A DNA stretch of 64,000 bases from Alphaproteobacteria bacterium (GTDB lineage Bacteria > Pseudomonadota > Alphaproteobacteria > CAAGCB01 > CAG-977), in the NCBI GenBank assembly GCA_900768845.1, contig CAAGEK010000020.1, positions 14,011 to 78,010 on the forward strand. Reading direction: 5' to 3'. This document shows positions 11,417 through 63,057 of the stretch, one piece after another. The number at the start of each line of letters is the position of its first letter. Position 1 is the stretch's first letter. The position numbers were made by a program, and so were the translations under genes. The notes beneath the pieces were generated by a model. It was given only the letters and a program-made list of their open reading frames with translations, searched no databases and was not told the DNA's origin.

Positions 11417-11434
11417 TGTTCAAGGATGAAAACA

Positions 11435-12358
11435 ATGGCTAAAAAAATATGGAAAGCGGGAACGATGCTGTATCCCGCGCCGCCCGTCATGGTGACGTGC
11501 GGAACGGCGGAAAAGGCGAATGTCTTTACGGCGGCGTGGACGGGGATTGTCAATTCGGAACCCCCGATGACGTATGTGTCCGTCCGTCCGTCGCGGTATT
11601 CCCACGAATTGATCAGCGAAACGGGAGAGTTCGTCATCAACCTGACAACGGCGGATTTGATAAAAACGGCCGATTTTTGCGGAGTCAAATCGGGTCGCGA
11701 TATGGACAAGTTCGCCGAAACGGGATTGAAAACCGTTCCCGCTTCCGATGTTTCGTGCCCGTTGCTGGAAGCTTCCCCCGTTTGTTTGGAATGTCGGGTG
11801 ACGGAAGTGAAGTCTTTGGGATCGCACGATATGTTTTTGGCGCGAATCACGGCCGTGGACATTGACGAATCGCTGTTGGACGAGACGGGAGCCTTGCAAT
11901 TGGAAAAAGCGCATCTGGCGGCGTTTTGCCACGGAAAATACCATGCCGTCGGCGCAGAATTGGGGACGTTCGGTTTTTCCGTCATGAAAAAGAAAACCAG
12001 AAAACGCCGCATCGCCGAAATCAAAGAGGAACGCAGGGAAAAACGTCTGCATCAGAAAAAGGAAACGGTTGAAGAATCTTTTGAACCGGAAAGGCCGAAA
12101 CATTTTTCAAAGCCCGCCTTTAAAAAGGGCGGTTCTTTCCCTTTGCGCGGCAGACGGACGGAAAAGGAGGAAGGCGCGGCGAAACGTCCGTCCGGCGAAA
12201 GGCAGGAACGCCCGTTCGGGAAAGAAGGCAAACGCCCTTTCAACGGTGAAAGGAAACGTCCGTTTAAAAACAACGGCAAATTTACGGAACGGGAAACGGA
12301 AAGGACGTTCAAGAAAAAGCCCTTTTTGAAAAAGAAGCCTTTTAAAAGGGGCGAATGA
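11435..12358 (+). CDS. Flavin reductase-like (FMN-binding split-barrel) domain protein with ~130-aa K/R/E-rich C-terminal tail containing RPF repeats
   Basis: N-terminal ~170 aa match the flavin reductase domain pattern (MTYVSVRPSRYSHELI, GEFVINL, DKFAETGL). The tail carries ERPFGKEGKRPFNGERKRPFKNNGKF repeats. AAGGA RBS 9 nt upstream. Confidence 0.6.
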   Translation: MAKKIWKAGTMLYPAPPVMVTCGTAEKANVFTAAWTGIVNSEPPMTYVSVRPSRYSHELISETGEFVINLTTADLIKTADFCGVKSGRDMDKFAETGLKTVPASDVSCPLLEASPVCLECRVTEVKSLGSHDMFLARITAVDIDESLLDETGALQLEKAHLAAFCHGKYHAVGAELGTFGFSVMKKKTRKRRIAEIKEERREKRLHQKKETVEESFEPERPKHFSKPAFKKGGSFPLRGRRTEKEEGAAKRPSGERQERPFGKEGKRPFNGERKRPFKNNGKFTERETERTFKKKPFLKKKPFKRGE

Positions 12359-12469: not shown

Positions 12470-13600
12470 ATGTCTTTGAAAGCCGCCTTCAACCGGATTT
12501 TTAAATCGAAACCCTCCGTCGGCCGGTACGACCTGCACGGCATAACGGTAAACGTTGCACCGGATGAAAAGGCGAATGTCGAAGCCCTGTTCGATGCATT
12601 GGCTTCCGTTCCCTCCGGACGGCAGGCTTTGGACGATATGGCGCAATACAAGACCGCTTTCTTTTTGGAATCGGGGCTGAAGACGGCAAACGCCTTTTTC
12701 AATCCGGAAAGCAACGCCATCGTTATGGACAGGTCTTTGGATCCCGCGGCCATGCAATTCATTTTGGTGCATGAAGCGCGTCATTTGCGGCAATGGCATC
12801 AGGGACGCAAAGAGGCGGAAGCCCTGAATCCGGATTTCGCATCGAAAATGATGCTTGTCAAAGCGACGGAAGCCGACGCTCAGGTTCAGGCCTTCCAAGC
12901 CTGTTTGGAATGGCGGGAACGGGGGAACGCCGCTCCGATGGAGCAATTTGAAAAGCGAGACCGTTCGATTGTTGACGGTTTCAACCGCTCCCGTTCCCTT
13001 TCGGGTGCTTTCAAAGGCTGGTATGACAACGATTTGACCGTTGCCGTTTACGAATTCAATCACGGAATTTTCCCCGCTCTGATGTATTTGGATGAAAATC
13101 CTGAGGAAAAGCGGCCTTTCACATCTTTAAAGCCGGCGGATATCGCCCGATTTTGCGGCGGGAATCGCATTGAAGGGTTTGAACGTTTTTTGGATTCCCC
13201 CAAAGCCCGCCGGATGCATTTAATGACCAAAACCGCCGCCGAAATTTATGATTCCGTTTCGACGGCGAAAGGTGCCGCTCATGATCCGTCGTTGAAGGGC
13301 GTCCCCCTTGTTCCTTTGAACGAAAGCCCCTGCACCCGAATGGCGGCGGATCTTCTTGTTGCACGAACGCACAACACTTTTCCCCCGTCTTTGACAAAAA
13401 ATCCGGTCAAGCGCAATATTTTAAAAACCCTGAATGCGGTTGCGGTTTGCGTTGAAAAGATGAATCGTGCGGAAATCAAAGGCGTAACGGATATTGAGGC
13501 CTCCGCCGGTTTGGAAGAAAGCAAAAAACGGGTTTTGAATGCCGTAAACAAAAACCCTTTGCAAGCCTTGCTTCCCGCTTATTGTTCATCCCGCAACTGA
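12470..13600 (+). CDS. Hypothetical cytoplasmic protein with HExxH zincin-like motif (putative metallopeptidase), no signal peptide
   Basis: AAGGAA RBS. Motif ILVHEARHLRQWHQGRKEAEAL, with HEARH plus downstream Glu residues. Gene lies directly upstream of tRNA-Arg. Confidence 0.6.
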   Translation: MSLKAAFNRIFKSKPSVGRYDLHGITVNVAPDEKANVEALFDALASVPSGRQALDDMAQYKTAFFLESGLKTANAFFNPESNAIVMDRSLDPAAMQFILVHEARHLRQWHQGRKEAEALNPDFASKMMLVKATEADAQVQAFQACLEWRERGNAAPMEQFEKRDRSIVDGFNRSRSLSGAFKGWYDNDLTVAVYEFNHGIFPALMYLDENPEEKRPFTSLKPADIARFCGGNRIEGFERFLDSPKARRMHLMTKTAAEIYDSVSTAKGAAHDPSLKGVPLVPLNESPCTRMAADLLVARTHNTFPPSLTKNPVKRNILKTLNAVAVCVEKMNRAEIKGVTDIEASAGLEESKKRVLNAVNKNPLQALLPAYCSSRN

Positions 13601-13708
13601 CACCCCGAGGGGGTGGGTAAGTTTTCAGGGAAGTAAATATTTCCGCCGACGTTTCTTCCAAAAACTTAAAGAGCCTTTCAGGCTCAAATCTTGGGGCTTA
13701 CAACATAA

Positions 13709-13743
13709 AAACACCCCCCGCCTTGCGGCAGGGGGTGTTTTTA
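13709..13743. terminator. Bidirectional rho-independent terminator (CACCCCC-GCCTTGCGGC-AGGGGGTG flanked by A/T runs)
   Basis: GC-rich hairpin with a T-run on both strands. Sits immediately 3' of tRNA-Arg (minus) and ~110 nt 3' of the 12470-13600 gene (plus). Confidence 0.7.
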
Positions 13744-13821
13744 TGGCGCGCCCAAGAAGATTCGAACTCCTAGCCTTCTGATCCGTAGTCAGATGCTCTA
13801 TCCAGTTGAGCTATGGGCGCC
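13744..13821 (-). tRNA. tRNA-Arg (anticodon ACG), CCA encoded
   Basis: Minus-strand sequence GGCGCCCATAGCTCAACTGGATAGAGCATCTGACTACGGATCAGAAGGCTAGGAGTTCGAATCTTCTTGGGCGCGCCA. Cloverleaf with anticodon loop CUACGGA and T-arm GGTTCGAATCC-like. Confidence 0.9.
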
Positions 13822-14027
13822 TGAACAAGGGTGTATATACCGCTTTTAAAAATCTTGTGCAAGCTTTTTTTTAAAAATTTTACAAGAAAAATGACATCCC
13901 GCGCTTTTTTGATAAAAATTCTTGCAAAACCGCGTTTTCTCGCTACATTCTAAATCAACGCCGCCGGAATTTCCGTTCAGGTAGCGAAACGTTGCGCAAA
14001 AACTTTACTTTTTCAAGGTGTCAAATC

Positions 14028-15182
14028 ATGTCCGTTTCAAAGCGACTTCTTTCCGTTGCTGCTTTTTTAACGCTCTTCGGATGTTCTTCGACTCAGGAAC
14101 CTTATTCCGCCGACGATTATTATGCCGACGAGTTTTCAACCGTTCAGCCCGCGGAAGAACAGGCCGTCCCCGAAAAAGGGACGGACAAGCCGAAAGCCGC
14201 CGCCGAAAACGAACCCGCCCGTCCCCAAGCCGCGGCCACGCCTGCGGATATTTCCGGAAAGTATGCGGGAAAGCCGACCTTTATCGGTCAGAAAGTCGCA
14301 ACAATCGACCGCGAAGTGAAATCCCTTAAGGAAAAAGTGTCCAAAAACACCCAGACTTTCAGAACCTTGAAGGAAAAGAACGCCTCCGAGTCGAAGGCGT
14401 ATTACGAATTCATCGCCCATATCAACGCCCGTTTGCAAATCGGAACGACTCCGGGAAATCCCGAATTGACGGAAATGTGGAAGCAGGCCGGCGTCAAAGT
14501 CAACCAGTTGGAACAAAACATCACGGCCATGTCCCGTCTGGCGACTCAGGCCGATTCGGATTCCGCAATGGTGACATATCTGTTGGATGCCATCCGCGCA
14601 ACGTTTTCAATATCGGGCGCACAGGAATCCGAACATGAGCATTTGCGTCTGATGGAAGACGAAACAAACCAGACCTCCGTCCTGTTGGAACGTCTGGTCA
14701 GCGACATCAATATGCAGGTCGCCCGTCAACAGCAGTACATCGCCAACGAACGCCGCAACCTTTCCACGTTGGGAATGGGCATCCGTTCGGGACAGTTGTT
14801 CGGCGTCAATCTGGCCGATCCGACAATGATTCCGACCCCCGCCGCGGCTCCCGCTTCGGGTGCGGCGTCGACCCTGCCGGCCGCGAATGTCGCAGGTCGC
14901 CGCCCCTTGATGGTCATCCGTTTCGACCGCCGGAACGTCGCTTATGAACAACCGTTGTACCAAGCCGTCAAGACGGCTTTGGAAAAACGGCCGGCCACGT
15001 CGTTTGAAGTCGTCGCCGTCAGTCCCGCGAACGTCCCTTCGGGCGGATACGAAGCGGCGAAAAACGCTCAGGCCGTTTACAACTCCCTGATCGCCATGGG
15101 CTTGCCCGCCGGACGCGTCAGTGTGACCAAAATGCAAAGCACGGGGCTTCGCGCAACGGAAGTGCGCATTTATTTGAAATAA
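14028..15182 (+). CDS. Lipoprotein with central coiled-coil region and degenerate OmpA/MotB-like C-terminal domain
   Basis: Lipobox LTLFGCSS (start taken at the second Met of the listed ORF). C-terminal NAQAVYNSLIAMGLPAGRVSV...RATEVRIYLK resembles the OmpA-like peptidoglycan-binding fold. Confidence 0.45.
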   Translation: MSVSKRLLSVAAFLTLFGCSSTQEPYSADDYYADEFSTVQPAEEQAVPEKGTDKPKAAAENEPARPQAAATPADISGKYAGKPTFIGQKVATIDREVKSLKEKVSKNTQTFRTLKEKNASESKAYYEFIAHINARLQIGTTPGNPELTEMWKQAGVKVNQLEQNITAMSRLATQADSDSAMVTYLLDAIRATFSISGAQESEHEHLRLMEDETNQTSVLLERLVSDINMQVARQQQYIANERRNLSTLGMGIRSGQLFGVNLADPTMIPTPAAAPASGAASTLPAANVAGRRPLMVIRFDRRNVAYEQPLYQAVKTALEKRPATSFEVVAVSPANVPSGGYEAAKNAQAVYNSLIAMGLPAGRVSVTKMQSTGLRATEVRIYLK

Positions 15183-15315
15183 TGCAGATGAAATCAAAGA
15201 TCCGGACTGTCGGTTCGTCCGGATCTTTTTCATATCCGCAAAGCATCTGTGCTGGACAGGGAATCGGATAGATTTTATCATAAGCGCATAAATCTGATTT
15301 TGACGGGAAACGATT

Positions 15316-16605
15316 TTGGTTACGGCAAGACAAAACGGCGAACAACAATTCTTGGATATGCTTTACCGCATTGAAGGGATGAGGCGTGACATCCAGATCG
15401 TTCATCTGAAACTGTCCGCCCTGTCCGCGACCGACCGGCAGGATGAAAGACAGAACCATGTCATGACGTCTTTGTTGGACGCTTTCCTGAGCCGGTCGAA
15501 AGCCCGCCTGTTTTCCATGTCGGACGGAGATTTCTTCATCGTCGTCCATTCGCTTTCCCGCCCTTTGTTGCAAAACCTGACGGACGCTTTAAGAAGGCTG
15601 TACCGCTCCGATCCGCTGACAAAAGCTCCGCCCATCCGTTTTTGCGAAGTCATCGAGCTGGAATACGAATATGACGCCGTTTTGAAACTTGCGCGTCAAA
15701 AAGCCGACAACGCGGGCAAGGCAACCCTCAAAAAAGAACAGCCGCGGGATTTGGTTCCCTTGGCTCCCGAACATCTGGACGCCATCTTGCGCAACATTCG
15801 GGGGTTCAACATCCTGAAAGTCATCCGCAGACAGGAAGCCATCCGGATTTCCCGAAACGGCAAATACACGTCCCTGTTCAAGGAATATTTCACTTCGATG
15901 GCCGATTTAAAGGCCGCAATCGCTCCGGACGTCGACGTTTTGTCGAACAGATGGCTGTTCCAACACCTGAGCGAAACGCTGGACGAACGGATGTTGTCGG
16001 TGCATGACAGCCTGTTTGCCCGAACACCGGGGAATATCAGCCTGAACCTCAACATTTCAACGATTTTTACGAACGCTTTCGAACATTTTCTGGAACAAAT
16101 GCCCGAATCAAAGTTTATCGTTGTCGAAGTCCAGCTGATGGACATTATTCAAAACACCAAAAACTTTATCACGGCCAAAGAATTGTTGCGCGAAGCGGGA
16201 CACAAAATCCTGATTGACGGCTTGCATCCGATTTCTTTGCAATTTCTGGATTTGAACCTGTTGGATCCCGATTTGATCAAGCTCAACTGGTCGGCGGCGA
16301 TTCTGGAAAATGCGGGAACGTCGGGATTGAAGGACGCTTTAAAGGAAATCGACCCCGAAAAGATCGTTTTAATGCGTTGCGAAGACGAAAACGCCGTCAA
16401 ATGGGGGCTGACCAACGGCATTACGCGTTTTCAGGGCTACTTTATCGACGCGTTGTCGGGTGCGGGCGTCAAGCGTAAATGTCAAAACGGCGACGGTTGC
16501 TCTTTGCAACAGTGTATAGCCAGAAAATCGTGTATCGCCGGTTCCGTGCGTTCCCAATGCCTGAATCAGGATGCGCTGGACTCCCTGATTGAAGAAAACC
16601 TGTAG
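15316..16605 (+). CDS. Degenerate GGDEF-EAL protein, paralog 1 (catalytic motifs lost; candidate c-di-GMP receptor)
   Basis: GGDEF region reads ARLFSMSDGDFFIVVHSL (RxGGDEF replaced). EAL region reads ILIDGLHPISLQFLDLNLLDPDLIKLNWS ... VLMRCEDENAVKWGLTNGITRFQGYFIDAL (DDFGTG...KIDRSF...AEGVE...QGY pattern with catalytic residues substituted). TTG start inferred from alignment with paralog 2; an ATG at 15359 is the alternative. Confidence 0.6.
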   Translation: MVTARQNGEQQFLDMLYRIEGMRRDIQIVHLKLSALSATDRQDERQNHVMTSLLDAFLSRSKARLFSMSDGDFFIVVHSLSRPLLQNLTDALRRLYRSDPLTKAPPIRFCEVIELEYEYDAVLKLARQKADNAGKATLKKEQPRDLVPLAPEHLDAILRNIRGFNILKVIRRQEAIRISRNGKYTSLFKEYFTSMADLKAAIAPDVDVLSNRWLFQHLSETLDERMLSVHDSLFARTPGNISLNLNISTIFTNAFEHFLEQMPESKFIVVEVQLMDIIQNTKNFITAKELLREAGHKILIDGLHPISLQFLDLNLLDPDLIKLNWSAAILENAGTSGLKDALKEIDPEKIVLMRCEDENAVKWGLTNGITRFQGYFIDALSGAGVKRKCQNGDGCSLQQCIARKSCIAGSVRSQCLNQDALDSLIEENL

Positions 16606-16613
16606 GAGGGACA

Positions 16614-17846
16614 ATGATACAAAACCAAGAGGAATCCCTCCGCGCCTATTTGCACGAAGCCATCAAAAACAAAGCCCCGACGACCGTGTTGCAGCTGAAA
16701 ATATCCCTGCTCGATCCGGTTTTGCGGACGGAAAACACTCTGGGAACGATTGTCGAGAATTTCAGGGACGCCCTGTATCCTTACGGCCGCGCTTTCTACA
16801 TGGCGAACGACGACATTTTCATCGCCTATTCTTTAAAAACCAAAGAAAACGAAATCAAAGCCCTGTTGATAAAAACATGGATTTGGTTTTCCGCCGACCC
16901 TCTGGCGTCCACGCCGGAAAAGCTGGAACGCCGCTTTTTCCTGCCTCAGGATAAAACGTCGCTGATGGAGGAGTTGCGCCGCATAACGGCGACGGCTCAA
17001 GAAGAAAAAGACGCATTGCCCGTCACGGCCGGCATCAAAAAGAAATTCATCCTGCCGCCGTCAAACGACAAGAACCACAAACTGTTGACGCCGGAAATGC
17101 TGTCAAGAATGGAAAAAGCGTTGACGGGGACGGATTTCGCCAACATGATCCGCCGCCAATCCGTTTGCGCCGTGTTGGACGACATCGACCCCCAGCCGAT
17201 GTTTGAAGAGGTCTTTGTCTCCATCGCCGATTTGGGAGATGCGATTCTGCCCGACGTGTCCCTGACGGCGACTCCGTGGCTGTTTCAGGATCTGACGGAA
17301 ACATTGGACAAGCGGATTTTGTTGAGCATCTCGCGTCACGACGACAAAACCCTGACCCATGATTTCAGCTTGAACCTGAACGTTTCCTCGATTCTTTCGG
17401 ATAATTTCAAAAAGTTTGACGACAACCTGCTTTCGGGAGTGAAGTCTTCCATCGTTTTGGAATTGCAACCCGTCGATATTTTCAGCGATTTGTCTTCATA
17501 CCTGTTGGCGCGGGATTATGCGCAAAATCAAGGGTATAAAATATGTATCGACGGCGTTACGGAAAAAAGCCTGCGTTTCATCGACCGCGAACGGCTGGGA
17601 GCCGATTTTTTAAAGCTGATCTGGACGCCCGAGCTTCCCGAAATCTTCGGGAATGATCCGCTGTTGCAGGACAGGTTGCAAACAATCGGGGCGAATCGAG
17701 CCGTTTTATGCCGCGTTGACGATGAACAGGCTTTGAAATTCGGCAAGTTTTACAACATTTCCCTGTTTCAGGGACGCTATATCCAGAACCTTCTGGCGAA
17801 CAACATCCGCCGCCGGCGCGTCGGAACAACTTTGTTAAGGAGATAA
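16614..17846 (+). CDS. Degenerate GGDEF-EAL protein, paralog 2
   Basis: 8-nt gap with GAGGGA RBS after paralog 1. RAFYMANDDIFIAYSL (degenerate GGDEF). ICIDGVTEKSLRFIDRERLGADFLKLIWT ... VLCRVDDEQALKFGKFYNISLFQGRYIQNL (degenerate EAL). Confidence 0.6.
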   Translation: MIQNQEESLRAYLHEAIKNKAPTTVLQLKISLLDPVLRTENTLGTIVENFRDALYPYGRAFYMANDDIFIAYSLKTKENEIKALLIKTWIWFSADPLASTPEKLERRFFLPQDKTSLMEELRRITATAQEEKDALPVTAGIKKKFILPPSNDKNHKLLTPEMLSRMEKALTGTDFANMIRRQSVCAVLDDIDPQPMFEEVFVSIADLGDAILPDVSLTATPWLFQDLTETLDKRILLSISRHDDKTLTHDFSLNLNVSSILSDNFKKFDDNLLSGVKSSIVLELQPVDIFSDLSSYLLARDYAQNQGYKICIDGVTEKSLRFIDRERLGADFLKLIWTPELPEIFGNDPLLQDRLQTIGANRAVLCRVDDEQALKFGKFYNISLFQGRYIQNLLANNIRRRRVGTTLLRR

Positions 17847-17850
17847 ATTT

Positions 17851-18762
17851 ATGTGGTATTGTTTTTTTAACGGCGAAAAAACCGGCCCCCTTTCCCGCGA
17901 ATCCGCACGCATATTCATCAATGAACATCCGGGGTGTCTTGTGTGGCGGGAAGGCATGGCGGAATGGATGACGCCCGAAAACGCCGGATTTGACGAAACC
18001 GCCCTTTCCGATACGCCTCCCAAAGGGGTTTTACATCCGAAATTGAGTTTTGAAATCAACGGCGACGATATGCAATACATCGAATTCGACCTGAAACCGC
18101 GGGAAACCGTTCTGGCCGAACCGGGGTCGATGATTTACAAACAATACGGAATCGACGTTGACGCCTCTTTCGGCGCGAAACAACACAAAAGCCTGTTATC
18201 CAATCTCTGGAGCGCGGGAAAACGGGTGTTGAGCGGGGAAAACCTGTTTTTCACATCCTTTACGAACGTCCGCAATCAAAACCAGAAAGTGGCCTTTTCC
18301 GCACCGTACCCCGGAAAAATCATTCCTATTTCCCTGAGCGATTTCGGCGGACAAATCATTTGTCAAAAGGACAGTTTCCTGTGTGCCGAACCTGATACGG
18401 AAATCAGCATTTTCTTTCAAAAACGCATTATGACGGCCATCTTCGGCGGCGCGGGCTTTATCATGCAAAGTCTGCACGGCAACGGCACGGCTTTCATCCA
18501 CGCGGGCGGAGCGATTCACGAATATAACCTGAGCCAAGGCGAATCGATGCAGGTCGACGCGGGTTGCCTTGTCGCCTTTGAACCGTCGGTTATGTTCGAC
18601 ATAACGAATGCGGGGTCTTTAAAATCGCAGATTTTCGGCGGCGCGGGATTGTTTTTCGCCAACCTTTCCGGCCCCGGACGCGTTTGGGTTCAATCGCTTC
18701 CGTTCGCACGATTCGCCAGCCGTCTGACTTCGGTGCGGGAAAAAGGAGGACGGGTCAGATAA
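17851..18762 (+). CDS. DUF4339 (GYF-like) + AIM24/TIGR00266-family domain protein
   Basis: N-terminal MWYCFFNGEKTGPLSRESARIFINEHPGCLVWREGMAEWMTPENAG matches the DUF4339/GYF-like pattern. The remainder is glycine-rich beta-strand repeats like the AIM24 family. AAGGAG RBS. Operonic with the two GGDEF-EAL paralogs. Confidence 0.5.
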   Translation: MWYCFFNGEKTGPLSRESARIFINEHPGCLVWREGMAEWMTPENAGFDETALSDTPPKGVLHPKLSFEINGDDMQYIEFDLKPRETVLAEPGSMIYKQYGIDVDASFGAKQHKSLLSNLWSAGKRVLSGENLFFTSFTNVRNQNQKVAFSAPYPGKIIPISLSDFGGQIICQKDSFLCAEPDTEISIFFQKRIMTAIFGGAGFIMQSLHGNGTAFIHAGGAIHEYNLSQGESMQVDAGCLVAFEPSVMFDITNAGSLKSQIFGGAGLFFANLSGPGRVWVQSLPFARFASRLTSVREKGGRVR

Positions 18763-18789
18763 AATTTCTCTGAAAAGCCGATAATCCTG

Positions 18790-18819
18790 TTGACAAACGG
18801 AAAGATATGAGGCTATAAG
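18790..18819 (+). promoter_or_regulatory. Sigma-70-like promoter TTGACA-N18-TATAAG for rplU-rpmA
   Basis: TTGACA at 18790-18795 and TATAAG at 18814-18819, about 60 nt upstream of the rplU start. Confidence 0.45.
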
Positions 18820-18879
18820 AAACTTCCTTGCAAGTGGAGAATGGCTCTGCTTGATTTATTGAATTTCGGATGGTGAAAA

Positions 18880-19179
18880 ATGTTCGCAGTCATCAAGACA
18901 GGCGGCAAGCAGTACAAAGTCGCGAAAGACGATGTCATTATCGTTGAAAAGCTCAACGCAGAAGTCGGTTCCGCTGTAACATTTGACGAAGTGCTTGCTG
19001 TCGGTGAAAAAATCGGTGCGCCCGTTGTTGCCGGCGCGAAAGTTTCCGGTACGGTCGTAAAACAGACCCGTGACGACACGGTTTTGGTTTTCAAGAAAAA
19101 ACGCCGTCAGGGATACCGTCGTAAAAACGGTCATCGTCAGCATATCTCGATCGTCAAGATCACGGATATTGCCGGTTAA
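18880..19179 (+). CDS. rplU: 50S ribosomal protein L21
   Basis: [14 protein letters not shown]... typical L21, 99 aa. Confidence 0.9.
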
Positions 19180-19210
19180 TCAAATACGGTTTTTGTCAGG
19201 AGTTTGAATC

Positions 19211-19462
19211 ATGGCACATAAAAAAGCAGGCGGCAGCACCAGAAACGGACGCGATTCCGAAGGTCGTCGTTTAGGCGTCAAGAAATCCGGCGGTCAGGCT
19301 GTCATCCCCGGCAATATCATTATCCGTCAGCGCGGAACGAAATACCGTGCGGGAGCGAATGTCGGCGTCGGTCGTGATCATACGATTTTTGCAAAGGTCG
19401 AAGGTCGCGTCGAATTTACGCGCAAGGCTGACGATCGCGTTTACGTTTCCGTTGTTGCCTGA
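19211..19462 (+). CDS. rpmA: 50S ribosomal protein L27
   Basis: [16 protein letters not shown]...IIRQRGTK typical L27, 83 aa. Confidence 0.9.
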
Positions 19463-19597: not shown

Positions 19598-19815
19598 GGG
19601 GGAACGGGATACCGTTTCCCCTTTTGTTTGCTTTAATTCCCCCAACCGGCGGAAAATCAAGGGATTGCGGGGATGCTGTTTTCCCTTTTGTTCGCCTTAA
19701 TTCCCCCGAACCGGCGAAAATCAAGGGATTGCAGGGATACCGTTTCCCCTCTTTTGTTTGCCTTAATTCCCCCGAACCGGCGGAAAATCAAGGGATTGCG
19801 AGGATGCCTTTTCCC
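19598..19815. repeat. Tandem direct repeat, ~65-bp unit x ~3.4 copies, in the rpmA-obgE intergenic region
   Basis: Units at 19622-19685, 19686-19751 and 19752-19815 (TTTTGTTTGCCTTAATTCCCCCGAACCGGCGGAAAATCAAGGGATTGCGGGGATGC...TTTCCC) plus a partial copy at 19598-19621. Each unit contains the inverted element GGGAACGG/CCGTTTCCC. Confidence 0.8.
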
Positions 19816-20135
19816 TTTTATTTGTTCTAAACGATACGATAAGCCTGAGGACGGTACGACGAACCTCACGCCGTCGCCCTTCCCTTTGCCGTCGGGAGCG
19901 GACAAGGTGCGCGCCGTCAAAGCATCTCCTTCCCTTTGCGCCGCCAAAGTCGCATTCCCGAACGAAAAGCCGCCATCCTTTCCTATAAAGCCTTGAACGC
20001 CTTCATCCGTAACAAAGCGGCCGAATCGCCACCGGCCGTTTTTTATCCGGCCGCCTTCCTTTCGCCCGAAAACCGCTTCTTAGAACATCGACACGACAAG
20101 AAATGTTTTCCTGAGAATTTTTCCCTATCTGATAA

Positions 20136-60813: not shown

Positions 60814-63057
60814 TCACGATACGGGCGGTTTCGGAGGAACAACGCCGCCCGCAGGCATCTTGGGAACTTTCACCCGTCCGGCGACGGGGACTTTGCGAAT
60901 GCCCCCCGCGGGTATTTTCTTTATCATTTTCTTGACCGGCGGCGGCGGAGGGGGAGGAGAAACCGGCTCGGAAACCGCAGGCAAATCCTCATCCGGCAAC
61001 TCATCGTCAAGAGTGCCGCTTACCGGCGCAACGACGTCGTCATCGTCGGGAAGCTCGTCTTTCTCTTCCACGATATGCGGCTTATCGGCGGCTCCCGCAT
61101 ACCCGAAAGGATTATCGTCATCATCGTCGGGAAGATCCGGCTCCGTTTCACCGGAAACATCCGGCATTCCGAGCGGAGCCGGTTCGTTTGCGTGACCAAA
61201 CGGATCGGATACGGGACTTTGCGACGCGGGACGGGAAGGTGTTTCGTCGGGCAAATCGTCGTCATATAAATCATCCAAAGAAACGCCCGCCGACATTTTT
61301 CCTTTCTTGGGAGCGGGTTCGTCATCGTCGTCATCCAAAGGAGCGTCATCGTCAAGATAAGTCCCGCCGCTTTGTCCCGCATAAGCCGTCGGCAAAGCGT
61401 CGTCGGGAATCGGAGAAACCGGCGCGGACGAAGCGGCCGGCGCAGGCGCAGGAACGGAAGACGGCGTAAAGTAATACAGCGGGGCTTCCAATGCTTTTTT
61501 AATTTCATCGTCCACCGGAGCGACCGTATCTTTGTCCGCGCCGTCCTCTCTGCGGATAATGACTCTGTTACGGCCGTTCTCCTTGGCGACATACAGGGCT
61601 TCGTCAGCCATTTTCAACATTTCTTCAACATTATCGGTGACTTCCGAAGAAACAAGGCCGATACTGACGGTGAAACGGACGTCTTCGTTTTGTTCGTTTT
61701 TCACAACAATCTTGGAAATGTTGATTCTCAAACGTTCCGCAACGCGGTGCGCATTTTCCAAAGAAACTTCCGGCAGTAAAATGACGAATTCCTCACCGCC
61801 GAAACGGGCGACAATGTCCGATTCGCGCAACGTCATGCGGCAACAATTCGCCAACGCCTGCAAAACCAAATCGCCGACAGCGTGCCCGTGTGTGTCGTTG
61901 ACGTTTTTAAAGTGATCCGCATCAATCATAAACAAACAGAACGGATGTTGATAACGTCTGGAACGCTGAACCTCTTTCATGGCCAGTTCCTCGAACTGGC
62001 GACGGTTGTAACAATTCGTCAGCGGATCACGCGTCGCCTGATCGAACAGCTTCATTTCCTTTTTCTTGCGACCCGTAATGTCTTGGAACGCCATATAAAG
62101 GGCGATTTCATATTCGAAATCGATGACGCGCACGGATAACAACAGCCAGAACGGTTCGCCTTTGCGCGGCTTAACCAAAATTTCAAAATCGTCAACGACC
62201 GGTTTCTTTTCAAGCCTTGCCAGCAATTCCCGCCGGCTGGACGGATCGGCAAGGTAATCGACCGTTTTGAAATTCCCCGGATGTTTGACGTCCAAACCGA
62301 ACAAAGCTCCCGCCTTGTCATTAATCAACATTAAACGGTCGTCTTTCAATCGGGAAATGATAATGGGGGAAGGCGATTTTTGAATCATCAAACGCAAACG
62401 GTTTTTGCTTTCCTCCGCTTCCTGAACCAGTTCTCCGAAACGGTGAGCCAGCAGGTTGTTTGAAATCAAAATCAAACCGCACGTCACGCCGATATACAAA
62501 AACGTTTCAAGCATCGGCGAAATCAGGTTGCGCCCCCATGCGAACAAATCCAACAGGTTGAACAGCGCGATGAAAATCAGCATCCATCCCGTCAGCACAA
62601 AGCCCAGAGAGGTCTTTAAGGATTTCTTGTTCCACAGGGATGCGGCCAAAGCACCGTATCCCGCCGTCGAAACGGCAAAAGAAAGCGTCAGCATATTCAT
62701 ATCGCGCAAAACGCCGACGACGTACCAGCTCCACCCGACGGTACAAAGAGCCGCGGCGATTAAAACCGTGCCGTTGAGTTTTTTCATCCCTTTGATCATC
62801 AGCGCGCCGGCAATCAGGCACACGGCGGAAACCAGACGCAAAGACAAGGTCACGAAGTAATATGATCCTTCGTCAAAAACGGGAATGGCGAAAATAAGCA
62901 GTTTTGCCGCAAAAACGCACAAAAAACCGTAAAATACGGCAGAAATCCCTTGGGAAAAATCCGACTGATCTTTTAAATACCGCAGTGCCAGCAAAATGCC
63001 TGCCAGCCCGAACAAGACCGGCGTCAAGCCCGCAGACGAATTTAAAGCCATGTTCAT
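60814..63057 (-). CDS. Membrane-anchored diguanylate cyclase (multi-TM sensor + PAS-like + GGDEF with intact GGEEF) carrying a ~250-aa acidic/proline-rich disordered C-terminal tail
   Basis: N-terminal ~8 hydrophobic helices, RFGGEEFVILLPE active-site motif, RxxD-like I-site context. The tail is rich in DDDD/LPDE/PAPAP and ends PPPPPPPVKKMIKKIPAGG. Confidence 0.8.
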   Translation of the reverse strand: MNMALNSSAGLTPVLFGLAGILLALRYLKDQSDFSQGISAVFYGFLCVFAAKLLIFAIPVFDEGSYYFVTLSLRLVSAVCLIAGALMIKGMKKLNGTVLIAAALCTVGWSWYVVGVLRDMNMLTLSFAVSTAGYGALAASLWNKKSLKTSLGFVLTGWMLIFIALFNLLDLFAWGRNLISPMLETFLYIGVTCGLILISNNLLAHRFGELVQEAEESKNRLRLMIQKSPSPIIISRLKDDRLMLINDKAGALFGLDVKHPGNFKTVDYLADPSSRRELLARLEKKPVVDDFEILVKPRKGEPFWLLLSVRVIDFEYEIALYMAFQDITGRKKKEMKLFDQATRDPLTNCYNRRQFEELAMKEVQRSRRYQHPFCLFMIDADHFKNVNDTHGHAVGDLVLQALANCCRMTLRESDIVARFGGEEFVILLPEVSLENAHRVAERLRINISKIVVKNEQNEDVRFTVSIGLVSSEVTDNVEEMLKMADEALYVAKENGRNRVIIRREDGADKDTVAPVDDEIKKALEAPLYYFTPSSVPAPAPAASSAPVSPIPDDALPTAYAGQSGGTYLDDDAPLDDDDDEPAPKKGKMSAGVSLDDLYDDDLPDETPSRPASQSPVSDPFGHANEPAPLGMPDVSGETEPDLPDDDDDNPFGYAGAADKPHIVEEKDELPDDDDVVAPVSGTLDDELPDEDLPAVSEPVSPPPPPPPVKKMIKKIPAGGIRKVPVAGRVKVPKMPAGGVVPPKPPVS

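Follow-up and report, generated by a model that had tools for sequence, protein, structure and literature searches.

Paired EAL-like proteins with half-degenerate pockets in Alphaproteobacteria: a candidate two-subunit c-di-GMP receptor

Introduction

Among the receptors for c-di-GMP, degenerate EAL proteins form a recognised class; to our knowledge, the known ones are all single-gene products, and every EAL-domain ligand characterised so far is either c-di-GMP or its product. LapD is a homodimeric membrane protein with a periplasmic domain, a HAMP domain and an S-helix, and its EAL site is devoid of metal ligands. FimX, encoded by a single gene, combines REC-like and PAS domains with a recognisable GGDEF domain, has no four-cysteine (Cys4) tail and does not conserve the metal ligands, while TipF is membrane-anchored with a coiled coil and has neither an N-terminal palm-like domain nor a paired paralog. 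YkuI, another homodimer, possesses the full catalytic residue set and a C-terminal PAS-like domain, and it binds c-di-GMP with one metal and no turnover. CsrD and YdiV have lost the metal ligands and work without c-di-GMP. LapD has been described as an EAL-domain receptor, FimX and Filp (Pseudomonas, Xanthomonas) bind c-di-GMP in a non-catalytic EAL domain and signal via protein partners, and TipF of Caulobacter crescentus is an alphaproteobacterial c-di-GMP receptor with an inactive EAL domain (PMC10519070). The intact catalytic site of an EAL domain consists of RocR residues E175, N233, E265, E268, D295, K316 and E352, and c-di-GMP is recognised by RocR Q161, R179, D296 and D318 (PMC2952852).

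In this study, we analyse two adjacent genes, A and B, in a 64,000-nucleotide stretch of alphaproteobacterial DNA (the window), which an original prediction had described as tandemly duplicated, catalytically dead GGDEF-EAL paralogs resembling FimX and LapD. Members of the A/B family are annotated merely as "hypothetical" or "EAL domain-containing", and our literature search found no paper on them. We tentatively favour, at a little under an even chance, a soluble heteromer of A and B that would bind c-di-GMP without hydrolysing it, perhaps with a metal or redox input.

Results

Gene A, the first of the two predicted paralogs, lies at positions 15316..16605 of the forward strand, and its 429-aa product begins with an alpha/beta domain, continues with an EAL-like barrel and ends in a Cys4 tail. 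Gene B, the second (16614..17846, forward strand), starts with ATG, and its product of 410 aa shares these two domains but lacks a Cys tail. Both open reading frames proved real, and all of the peptide strings previously quoted from them are present in the translations. The TTG start of gene A is needed because the family-invariant E9 would otherwise be excluded; the spacer between the genes is exactly 8 nt, and GGAGGG stands ahead of the ATG of gene B. The proposed paralogy of A and B is borne out by BLASTP (30% identity across 406 columns, E 1e-43), and neither protein has a predicted transmembrane segment, the highest KD(19) value being 1.3.

Direct reading of the sequence revealed a terminator-like hairpin at 15199..15230 of the forward strand (GATCCGGAC, a 9-nt loop and GTCCGGATC, then TTTTT), located 17 nt past the stop of a lipoprotein-like gene upstream, which marks the 5' boundary of the putative A/B transcription unit. 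The hairpin did not appear in the consensus scan because its loop of 9 nt exceeds the scan maximum of 8. A sigma-70-like promoter candidate follows at 15253..15281 (forward strand; TGGACA, 17-nt spacer, TATCAT), 35 nt before the start of gene A; as a consensus match only, it has 10 of 12 positions and is the joint best within 13600-19300. An Rfam search upstream of the operon found no riboswitch or other Rfam RNA.

The 85 related loci fall into four clades, which include gut and rumen Alphaproteobacteria, Magnetospirillum and Telmatospirillum. Gene A precedes gene B in 81 of them, the remaining four being truncated, and in 74 of 77 loci gene B starts between -8 and +20 nt from the stop of gene A, with overlap of the two genes in 26 of these. 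In all six clade pairs the A-A and B-B identities are at least as high as A-B, although one pair is nearly tied (A-A 0.352 vs A-B 0.350). By these comparisons, A and B are separate orthologous groups. Their adjacency on one strand and their 30% identity would also suit a tandem duplication of one degenerate gene that arose locally and recently and in which one copy may be decaying, but this explanation is refuted and retains practically no probability: comparison of B from the window and B from its close relative L001 with the B orthologs of other clades gives 265-298 bits, as opposed to about 135-165 bits for A-B pairs, the ordered pair recurs across the four clades, and B is the more conserved partner. 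The earlier description of A and B as duplicated in tandem was therefore right as to adjacent paralogs and understated as to the rest, since the sequence relationships indicate that A/B is an ancient ordered pair of distant Alphaproteobacteria. The family as a whole comprises about 870 clusters at 50% identity (E below 1e-30), with 429 loci among species-representative genomes.

The EAL-like domain spans residues 151-385 in A (15766..16470, forward strand) and the corresponding region of B (17091-17807, forward strand). Pfam EAL (PF00563) gave 29.4 bits for A (E 6e-7) and 19.6 bits for B (E 6e-4), so that both miss the gathering score of 31.3 bits although their E-values are significant; a precomputed PF00563 match exists for about half of the homologs. 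The AlphaFold model (pLDDT 89.9) has an EAL-type TIM-like barrel. In Foldseek the full-length model matched MorA, RbdA, LapD, PA0575 and DosP (E 7.5e-12 to 1e-8), aligning with solved tandem GGDEF-EAL proteins, both LapD structures included, over 413-438 columns, and solved isolated EAL domains matched with target-normalised TM of 0.55-0.61 (E 1e-7 to 1e-5). Structure prediction thus agrees with the proposed EAL fold. The family profile aligned with the RbdA EAL domain at residue level (E 2.8e-5) and matched V. cholerae LapD with E 1e-3, while for the first third of the EAL-like domain the HMMER profile search against the PDB aligned no solved EAL chain. Among the loci examined, no canonical EAL protein was found from which to build a comparison profile.

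The N-terminal domain covers residues 1-141 of A (15316..15738, forward strand) and 16614-17063 in B (forward strand). In the model it has the order beta-alpha-alpha-beta-beta-alpha-beta followed by a long helix, with pLDDT 82-90 in A, and we regard these ~140 aa as a predicted ferredoxin/palm-like fold that weakly resembles GGDEF. The beta2-beta3 hairpin, where a GG(D/E)EF motif would be expected, reads S-D-G-D in A (S69 to D72) and N-D-D in B and contains a single invariant acidic residue, D72 in A and D67 in B; E9, S34 and D99 of A are invariant as well. At E-values of up to 10, Pfam GGDEF (PF00990) matched neither A nor B nor any of 46 N-domains of the family, and the N-domain profile returned no GGDEF chain from the PDB, the returns being coiled-coil noise from the long helix. 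With hhalign, the probability of 31% (P 5e-4) obtained against a 3-sequence GGDEF profile dropped to 4.3% (P 0.0095) against a 118-sequence profile, and the best Foldseek match of the isolated domain was not significant (E 0.02, assorted ferredoxin-like folds). It is only by topology that this domain can be likened to GGDEF, and we do not assign it that identity, as HMM, profile-profile and isolated-domain Foldseek comparisons were all non-significant. Accordingly, the predicted GGDEF-EAL order stands for an EAL barrel that follows an alpha/beta domain and not for GGDEF by sequence, and the HMM comparison recovers EAL weakly and GGDEF not at all.

Residue conservation was counted over 81 A and 77 B sequences. 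Q173, E190, N244, E271, D301 and K322 are invariant in all 81 A sequences and in 76-77 of the 77 B sequences, and Q373 is kept in 80 A sequences, with its equivalent in 75 of B. In the model all seven lie at the ends of barrel strands, and it is from strand position that Q173 was mapped to the QP motif and E190 to the EAL motif. A and B share the one-metal ligand set E190/N244/E271/D301, together with K322 and Q173. Also invariant in the EAL-like domain of A are W213, N246, D276, D319 and G374, and R354, adjacent to a lost Glu, is nearly so. The equivalents in B are Q182, E199, N254, N256, E283, D288, D313, G314, D331, K334, C366, R367, Q386 and G387, of which R367 corresponds to R354. Family-specific invariant residues (W213, D276, D319, W325) line the domain. 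As Q173, E190, N244, E271, D301 and K322 are invariant in both proteins, their conservation indicates that the pocket of A and B is under selection.

The equivalents of RocR R179, E268, D296, D318 and E352 are lost in the family, the positions in A being S194, L274, G302, N324 and M353. R179 is replaced by Ser, E268 by L/V in A and K/P in B, D296 by Gly, D318 by variable residues, and E352 by A/M/S in A and by Cys in B, where this Cys is conserved in 61 of 77 sequences. Loop 6 (DFGTGYSS) has become DG-x-x-P in A and DGxxxxxL in B. Five of the seven catalytic residues are therefore kept (E190, N244, E271, D301, K322), and the Q161 equivalent (Q173/Q182) is the one recognition residue out of four that remains. 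The site is not intact, in accordance with the original prediction, which was half right in considering DDFGTG and KIDRSF substituted: the first Asp (D301/D313) and the Lys (K322/K334) are invariant in the family. Because nearly all members have other residues in place of E268, D296, D318 and E352, catalysis by A/B is unlikely, and their affinity or specificity for c-di-GMP may differ.

Some activity could nevertheless be imagined if A/B were a one-metal EAL-derived hydrolase, acting on c-di-GMP or another phosphodiester, in which Arg354/367 replaced the second metal or the general base. We consider such an enzyme quite improbable. The five invariant catalytic-set residues, the catalytic Lys among them, the new nearly invariant Arg that adjoins the lost Glu, and the conserved Cys that takes the place of this Glu in B are set against the loss of E268, E352 and D296, the first two of which belong to the seven residues required (PMC2952852). 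Loop 6 is also replaced in both proteins. Moreover, RocR activity is reportedly abolished by the loss of D296 or E352, a finding attributed to Rao et al. in 2008.

The same pocket might have changed its specificity and hold another ligand, such as a different cyclic dinucleotide, a cyclic oligonucleotide, pGpG or a phosphoester that is not a nucleotide. A metal site and Gln that are kept beside recognition positions that are consistently Ser, Gly or variable would fit this, as would the invariant residues lining the domain; yet nothing observed speaks positively for such a ligand, and a c-di-GMP cyclase is encoded in the genome, so we rate this explanation as rather improbable too.

Somewhat less improbable, though still unlikely, is that A/B is a ligand-independent scaffold like E. 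coli YdiV/CsrD, whose barrels would be pure protein-protein (or protein-RNA) modules. Three of the four recognition residues are lost (PMC2952852), no solved EAL aligns with the strongly diverged first third of the EAL-like domain, and the Arg-rich tail of B could touch nucleic acid or membrane. However, a ligand-free pocket would be unlikely to hold E190, N244, E271, D301, K322 and Q173 invariant across four clades, or Q373 nearly invariant in both subunits. In YdiV and CsrD, most of these residues are gone.

The C-terminal tail of A (residues 386-429; 16471..16602, forward strand) carries the motif C389-x5-C395-x4-C400-x14-C415, together with an invariant G409 and L421-D422, and is modelled with pLDDT 93-94. 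Of 85 A orthologs, 79 space the cysteines 5/4/14 and three space them 5/5/14, and the tail had neither a Pfam family nor a PDB sequence relative. It is missing from one clade and is therefore not essential to the core function. B ends instead in the basic, Arg-rich tail IRRRRVGTTLLRR (17808-17843, forward strand).

The third gene (17851..18762, forward strand) encodes a protein of 303 aa, begins 4 nt past gene B with AAGGAG ahead of its ATG, and is probably co-transcribed with the pair. Its AIM24 domain (PF01987) scored 226.3 bits against a cut-off of 25.7 and its GYF_2 domain (formerly DUF4339) 30.9 bits against 25.8, which agrees with the DUF4339-AIM24 protein that had been predicted. The association itself holds for the gut clade, where this gene follows the pair in 22 loci, and not for the other clades, where it is absent beside the pair. 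No gene partner common to all clades was found beside A/B: cobS/cobT occur there only in Magnetospirillum-type genomes, and mreCD/rodA with a hydrogenase-like gene flank the pair in one other clade. The cyclase announced for this window was recovered as a PAS-GGDEF protein (60817-63057, reverse strand; 157 bits) with an intact RFGGEEF motif and, since it lies in the window, the host is by its gene content a producer of c-di-GMP. The 249-aa C-terminal region of this protein was tested as a further degenerate EAL domain and is not one.

Discussion

A and B occur together in every related genome that we examined, and part of their catalytic machinery is lost; their probable role is thus that of a signal sensor with two subunits and not of an enzyme. 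In the cytoplasm they would assemble into a soluble complex, most probably a heterodimer of 1:1 stoichiometry; the conserved A-then-B order, the close or overlapping cistrons and the separate orthology of A and B speak for such a heteromer. Each subunit combines a small N-domain that is palm/ferredoxin-like with a long helix and a degenerate EAL barrel. Both barrels keep a one-metal nucleotide pocket (Glu-Asn-Glu-Asp, Lys and Gln), whereas the ligand of the second metal, the general base and the Glu that stabilises the loop are lost; with the pocket kept and these catalytic parts lost, the complex would bind c-di-GMP or a close relative without hydrolysis, although we infer both the binding and the lack of catalysis. 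As a receptor, it would pass its conformation on to clade-specific partners, the presumed output here being the AIM24/GYF protein and perhaps also the basic tail of B. In A, the four cysteines of the tail probably coordinate a metal centre, either Fe-S or Zn, which may serve as a redox or metal input or stabilise the complex.

An extended version, to which we give a low probability, comparable to that of the scaffold, is an obligate heterodimeric second-messenger sensor with half-degenerate EAL pockets and an Fe-S Cys4 tail or, alternatively, an EAL-derived enzyme that uses one metal and acts on a new substrate. With Fe-S, oxygen, redox state or iron would gate ligand sensing in the microaerophilic or anaerobic Alphaproteobacteria that carry the pair (Magnetospirillum, Telmatospirillum, and the gut and rumen lineages), and A/B would be a second-messenger sensor of an undescribed kind.

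Returning to the favoured c-di-GMP-binding heteromer, LapD of Pseudomonas fluorescens and Vibrio cholerae also has an alpha/beta domain ahead of its EAL barrel and is non-catalytic, as predicted for A/B; it is both the best PDB sequence-profile match of the full-length family (6pwj, E 5e-5) and among the best fold matches (6pwk, E 1.3e-10; 3pjw). In contrast to LapD, A/B is a paralog pair, predicted to be soluble and without a sensor module, which keeps the E/N/E/D metal set and whose N-domain is not recognisable as GGDEF by sequence. FimX/Filp resemble A/B as cytoplasmic, degenerate dual-domain proteins, and the FimX EAL structures 4fok, 4foj and 4f48 are among the fold matches. The input modules of LapD (TM-periplasmic-HAMP) and FimX (REC-PAS) are missing from A and B, which begin with the alpha/beta domain and in which no other Pfam domain was found. 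The likeness to FimX/LapD that had been proposed therefore extends to the fold, whereas the invariant one-metal E/N/E/D set with Lys and Gln is unlike either protein. TipF, like A/B, is an alphaproteobacterial EAL protein, and the two can be compared at the level of the EAL fold. The EAL barrel of Bacillus subtilis YkuI holds its ligand via a Glu-Asn-Glu-Asp metal site, as the A/B pocket might; YkuI (2bas) was a weak profile match (E 0.15-0.44) and also a fold match. CsrD and YdiV of E. coli are, like A/B, degenerate (GGDEF-)EAL proteins that appear as regulators rather than enzymes, but the metal ligands are invariant in the A/B family; the sole NCBIfam match of protein B was to CsrD and was insignificant (E 0.057).

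The A/B family differs from the known degenerate EAL receptors in its two diverged subunits, the one-metal pocket in both of them and, usually, an unclassified four-cysteine motif. If our reading is true, c-di-GMP signalling would gain a heteromeric receptor with a possible link to redox state, and there would be a first functional handle on this conserved gene pair of uncultured gut Alphaproteobacteria, as well as on the bacterial AIM24/GYF protein encoded behind it in that clade. These predictions are directly testable, as A/B is present in the genetically tractable Magnetospirillum. Two further arrangements seen within the family also favour a heteromer: one MAG contains two complete A/B pairs and, in a single case, A is fused to B(EAL) in one protein.

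The A/B pair and its transcription unit

Gene A (15316–16605, plus strand, 429 aa, TTG start) is followed after a spacer of 8 nt by gene B (16614–17846, plus strand, 410 aa, ATG start), with GGAGGG ahead of the B start, and 4 nt further on by a third ORF of the same strand (17851–18762, 303 aa), which Pfam identifies as a GYF_2 plus AIM24 protein and which has AAGGAG ahead of its ATG. Upstream of A lie a hairpin with a T-run, read from the sequence 3' of the preceding gene (15199–15230), and a promoter-like sequence that scored best in a consensus scan of the region (TGGACA-17-TATCAT, 15253–15281). Given this tight spacing, the upstream hairpin and the promoter-like match, the three genes look like a single transcription unit. 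An Rfam search upstream of A returned zero elements, riboswitches included. With 30% identity over 406 columns (E 1e-43), the A and B proteins are paralogs. The original prediction described them as tandem, catalytically dead GGDEF-EAL paralogs and candidate c-di-GMP receptors, and all the peptide strings cited for it were found in the ORF translations.

The EAL-like half and its active site

The EAL assignment of the C-terminal halves is sound because profile matches and the modeled structure both support it. In Pfam, EAL was the sole match of A and B, just under threshold (29.4 and 19.6 bits, respectively; cut-off 31.3 bits), and an NCBIfam search of the two gave no significant match. The family profile matched V. 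cholerae LapD (6pwj, E 5e-5), and one restricted to the EAL-like region matched the EAL domain of RbdA (8pps, E 2.8e-5). From an alignment of 36 sequences, AlphaFold2 gave a confident model of A (mean pLDDT 89.9); when this model was compared with the PDB by Foldseek, tandem GGDEF-EAL proteins ranked top with 413–438 aligned columns (MorA 4rnf, E 7.5e-12; RbdA 5xgb; LapD 6pwk, 6pwj, and 3pjw; PA0575; DosP), followed by the isolated EAL domains of YahA, PA3825, PdeA, FimX, and YkuI (target-normalised TM 0.55–0.61).

Residue equivalences of A were taken from the HMMER alignment to RbdA, in which N244 corresponds to the Asn of NLS, E271 and L274 to the first and second Glu of ExxE, D301-G302 to the DD of DDFG, K322 to the Lys of KxD, M353 to the Glu of E(G/F)VE, and Q373-G374 to QG. 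For the first third of the domain no sequence alignment to any solved EAL was obtained; in the model, Q173 and E190 fall on strands E170-178 and E184-193, which open the domain. Canonical EAL domains have their QP and EAL motifs on these two strands, and we infer from the model that Q173 and E190 hold the motif positions.

Over 81 non-identical A orthologs and 77 B orthologs, Q173, E190, W213, N244, N246, E271, D276, D301, D319, and K322 are invariant or nearly so in A and B, and Q373 and G374 are kept, missing in just one to two sequences per set. In RocR numbering, the R179 position is Ser (A 64/81, B 76/77), E268 is Leu or Val in A and Lys or Pro in B, D296 is Gly (A 76/81, B 76/77), D318 is variable, and E352 is Ala, Met, or Ser in A. 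Directly after the E352 position, R354 of A is new and nearly invariant in the family. The B protein reads C366-R367 there (17709–17714); 61 of the 77 B orthologs have Cys in place of the EAL general-base Glu, and the nearly invariant Arg comes next.

An intact EAL site needs E175, N233, E265, E268, D295, K316, and E352, and its recognition residues are Q161, R179, D296, and D318 (Seshasayee et al., PMC2952852). By this criterion A and B keep five of seven catalytic and one of four recognition residues, and thus they are very probably not two-metal phosphodiesterases. Both retain a complete one-metal Glu-Asn-Glu-Asp site, plus the Lys and the Gln, under strong purifying selection. We propose that each barrel would use a single metal to bind c-di-GMP or a closely related molecule and would leave it unhydrolysed. 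Less likely rival readings are a one-metal enzyme, a changed ligand specificity, and a ligand-free scaffold; the lost recognition positions speak for the scaffold, and the purifying selection on the metal ligands, Lys and Gln speaks against it.

The N-terminal domain and the C-terminal tails

The GGDEF identity that had been claimed for the N-terminal domains was not borne out, as every statistical homology test failed. Pfam at E up to 10 gave no GGDEF match in A, B, or 46 family N-domains, and GGDEF chains were absent from a PDB profile search with the domain. With hhalign, P was 5e-4 (probability 31%) against three GGDEF sequences and 0.0095 (probability 4%) against a 118-sequence GGDEF profile, both alignments being co-linear across all secondary-structure elements. 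A separate model of A residues 1–153 (pLDDT 81.9) gave nothing better than E 0.02 in Foldseek, in a list that included the GGDEF members TM1788, PadC, PelD, LapD, WspR, and GcbC together with designed ferredoxin folds, adenylyl cyclases, GTP cyclohydrolase III, and reverse-transcriptase palm domains. The modeled A domain (residues 8–141) runs beta-alpha-alpha-beta-beta-alpha-beta and then a long helix, and the strings originally read as GGDEF map to its beta2-beta3 hairpin, where true GGDEF domains bear their motif. D72 (D67 in B), E9, S34, and D99 are invariant in family N-domains. As modeled, the domain is a palm/ferredoxin-like fold at the GGDEF position of GGDEF-EAL proteins; it may reasonably be guessed to be a GGDEF in strongly reduced form.

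The tail of A carries C389-x5-C395-x4-C400-x14-C415 (16480–16560), modeled at pLDDT 93–94. This 5/4/14 spacing recurs in 79 of 85 A orthologs, three more having 5/5/14, and one Gly and Leu-Asp, invariant or nearly so, follow the motif. It is absent from one clade (loci L005 and L085), which has a Lys-rich tail, and from B, which ends in a short Arg-rich tail. Pfam and PDB searches with the Cys4 tail found no relative. The tail would bind metal, possibly as an Fe-S cluster, which would suit microaerophilic and anaerobic hosts.

Distribution and pairing of the family

Homolog searches found proteins of ~400–435 aa in Rhodospirillales and in uncultured Alphaproteobacteria of gut and rumen. The closest named relative is 'Acetobacter sp. 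CAG:977' (72% identity), and the family is present in cultured bacteria such as Magnetospirillum, Paramagnetospirillum, Phaeospirillum, Telmatospirillum, and Terasakiella. An exhaustive profile search gave 1956 clusters (50% identity) at E <= 1e-3 and 873 at E <= 1e-30, and 429 family loci were counted when each species was represented by one genome.

A second family gene directly follows the first on the same strand in 81 of 85 fetched loci, and the remaining four end too early to show one; first genes are A orthologs and second genes B orthologs. Measured from the stop of the first gene, a start codon for the second falls between −8 and +20 nt in 74 of 77 non-redundant loci, and in 26 of these it overlaps the stop; the closest start was taken in each case, which makes the measure somewhat generous. 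When the B proteins of the window and of its close relative L001 were compared by BLAST with B orthologs of distant clades, scores were 265–298 bits; A-B pairs scored about 135–165 bits. Identities in six cross-clade comparisons were 0.30–0.35 for A-A, 0.35–0.52 for B-B, and 0.26–0.35 for A-B; A-A and B-B exceeded or equaled A-B in all six, and B was always more conserved than A. Judged from these sequences, the pairing is ancient and appears obligate, and A and B together make up the functional unit. A recent local duplication is refuted by the orthology of A and B across clades and by the ordered pair.

MAG SMAG_U13702 holds two complete A-B pairs on two contigs (L069, L070), so that A and B seem to be duplicated together. 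In one database protein, P0121 (712 aa), an A-type protein that is complete except for the Cys tail is fused to a B-type EAL-like half; the fusion may be natural or may be an artefact of assembly or of a frameshift. Four family loci (L025, L034, L041, L048) bear Limosilactobacillus, Solirubrobacterales, Bacteroidota, and Actinomycetota labels; in similarity to the query their family genes are roughly on a par with the alphaproteobacterial loci listed beside them, and they keep the A-then-B order. The labels are probably binning errors.

AIM24/GYF, rplU, rpmA, and obgE follow the pair in the gut clade only (22 loci). In 36 loci of the Magnetospirillum type cobS follows it, and elsewhere the flanking genes are different again; among the fetched loci no neighbor besides A and B is conserved across clades.

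Comparison with known receptors

LapD, FimX/Filp, and TipF are listed as degenerate EAL receptors (PMC10519070). Together with YkuI, they are the nearest known systems. LapD and FimX have lost the metal ligands, whereas A and B keep Glu-Asn-Glu-Asp, in a one-metal site resembling the single-metal c-di-GMP complex of YkuI. Compared with these known systems, the family is a paired one that retains metal ligands, is soluble and without a sensor module, has an N-domain unrecognizable as GGDEF, and bears a Cys4 tail on A. Membrane-segment prediction found none in A or B. As EAL domains commonly dimerise, A and B may form a soluble heteromer; this complex would be the receptor, with output through protein partners differing by clade, and the partner in the source organism would be the probably co-transcribed AIM24/GYF protein. 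Family proteins are named 'hypothetical protein' or 'EAL domain-containing protein' in databases, and literature searches found no paper on them; the family is testable in Magnetospirillum.

Cyclase and surrounding genes

The GGEEF cyclase of the window, which the original prediction called active, is a PAS-GGDEF protein (60817–63057, minus strand) with an intact RFGGEEF motif and, five residues upstream, a RESD inhibitory-site motif; c-di-GMP is therefore probably made in the source organism. Its 249-aa C-terminal region (60817–61563) had no Pfam match and no similarity to the EAL-like profile of the A/B family.

Upstream of the pair are a flavin-reductase-like protein (11426–12358; Pfam Flavin_Reduct at residues 16–171) with a Lys/Arg/Glu-rich C-terminal extension of ~140 aa, a DUF6782 putative metallopeptidase (12470–13600), a tRNA-Arg(ACG) (13744–13820, minus strand), and a 396-aa lipoprotein-like coiled-coil protein without a Pfam family (13992–15182), whose place ahead of the pair is conserved in 25 gut-clade loci and which is separated from it here by the terminator-like hairpin. 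Downstream, the gap between rpmA (19211–19462) and obgE contains a tandem repeat (19606–19824; 64-bp unit, 3.4 copies, 85% match), which yields repetitive spurious ORFs on both strands.
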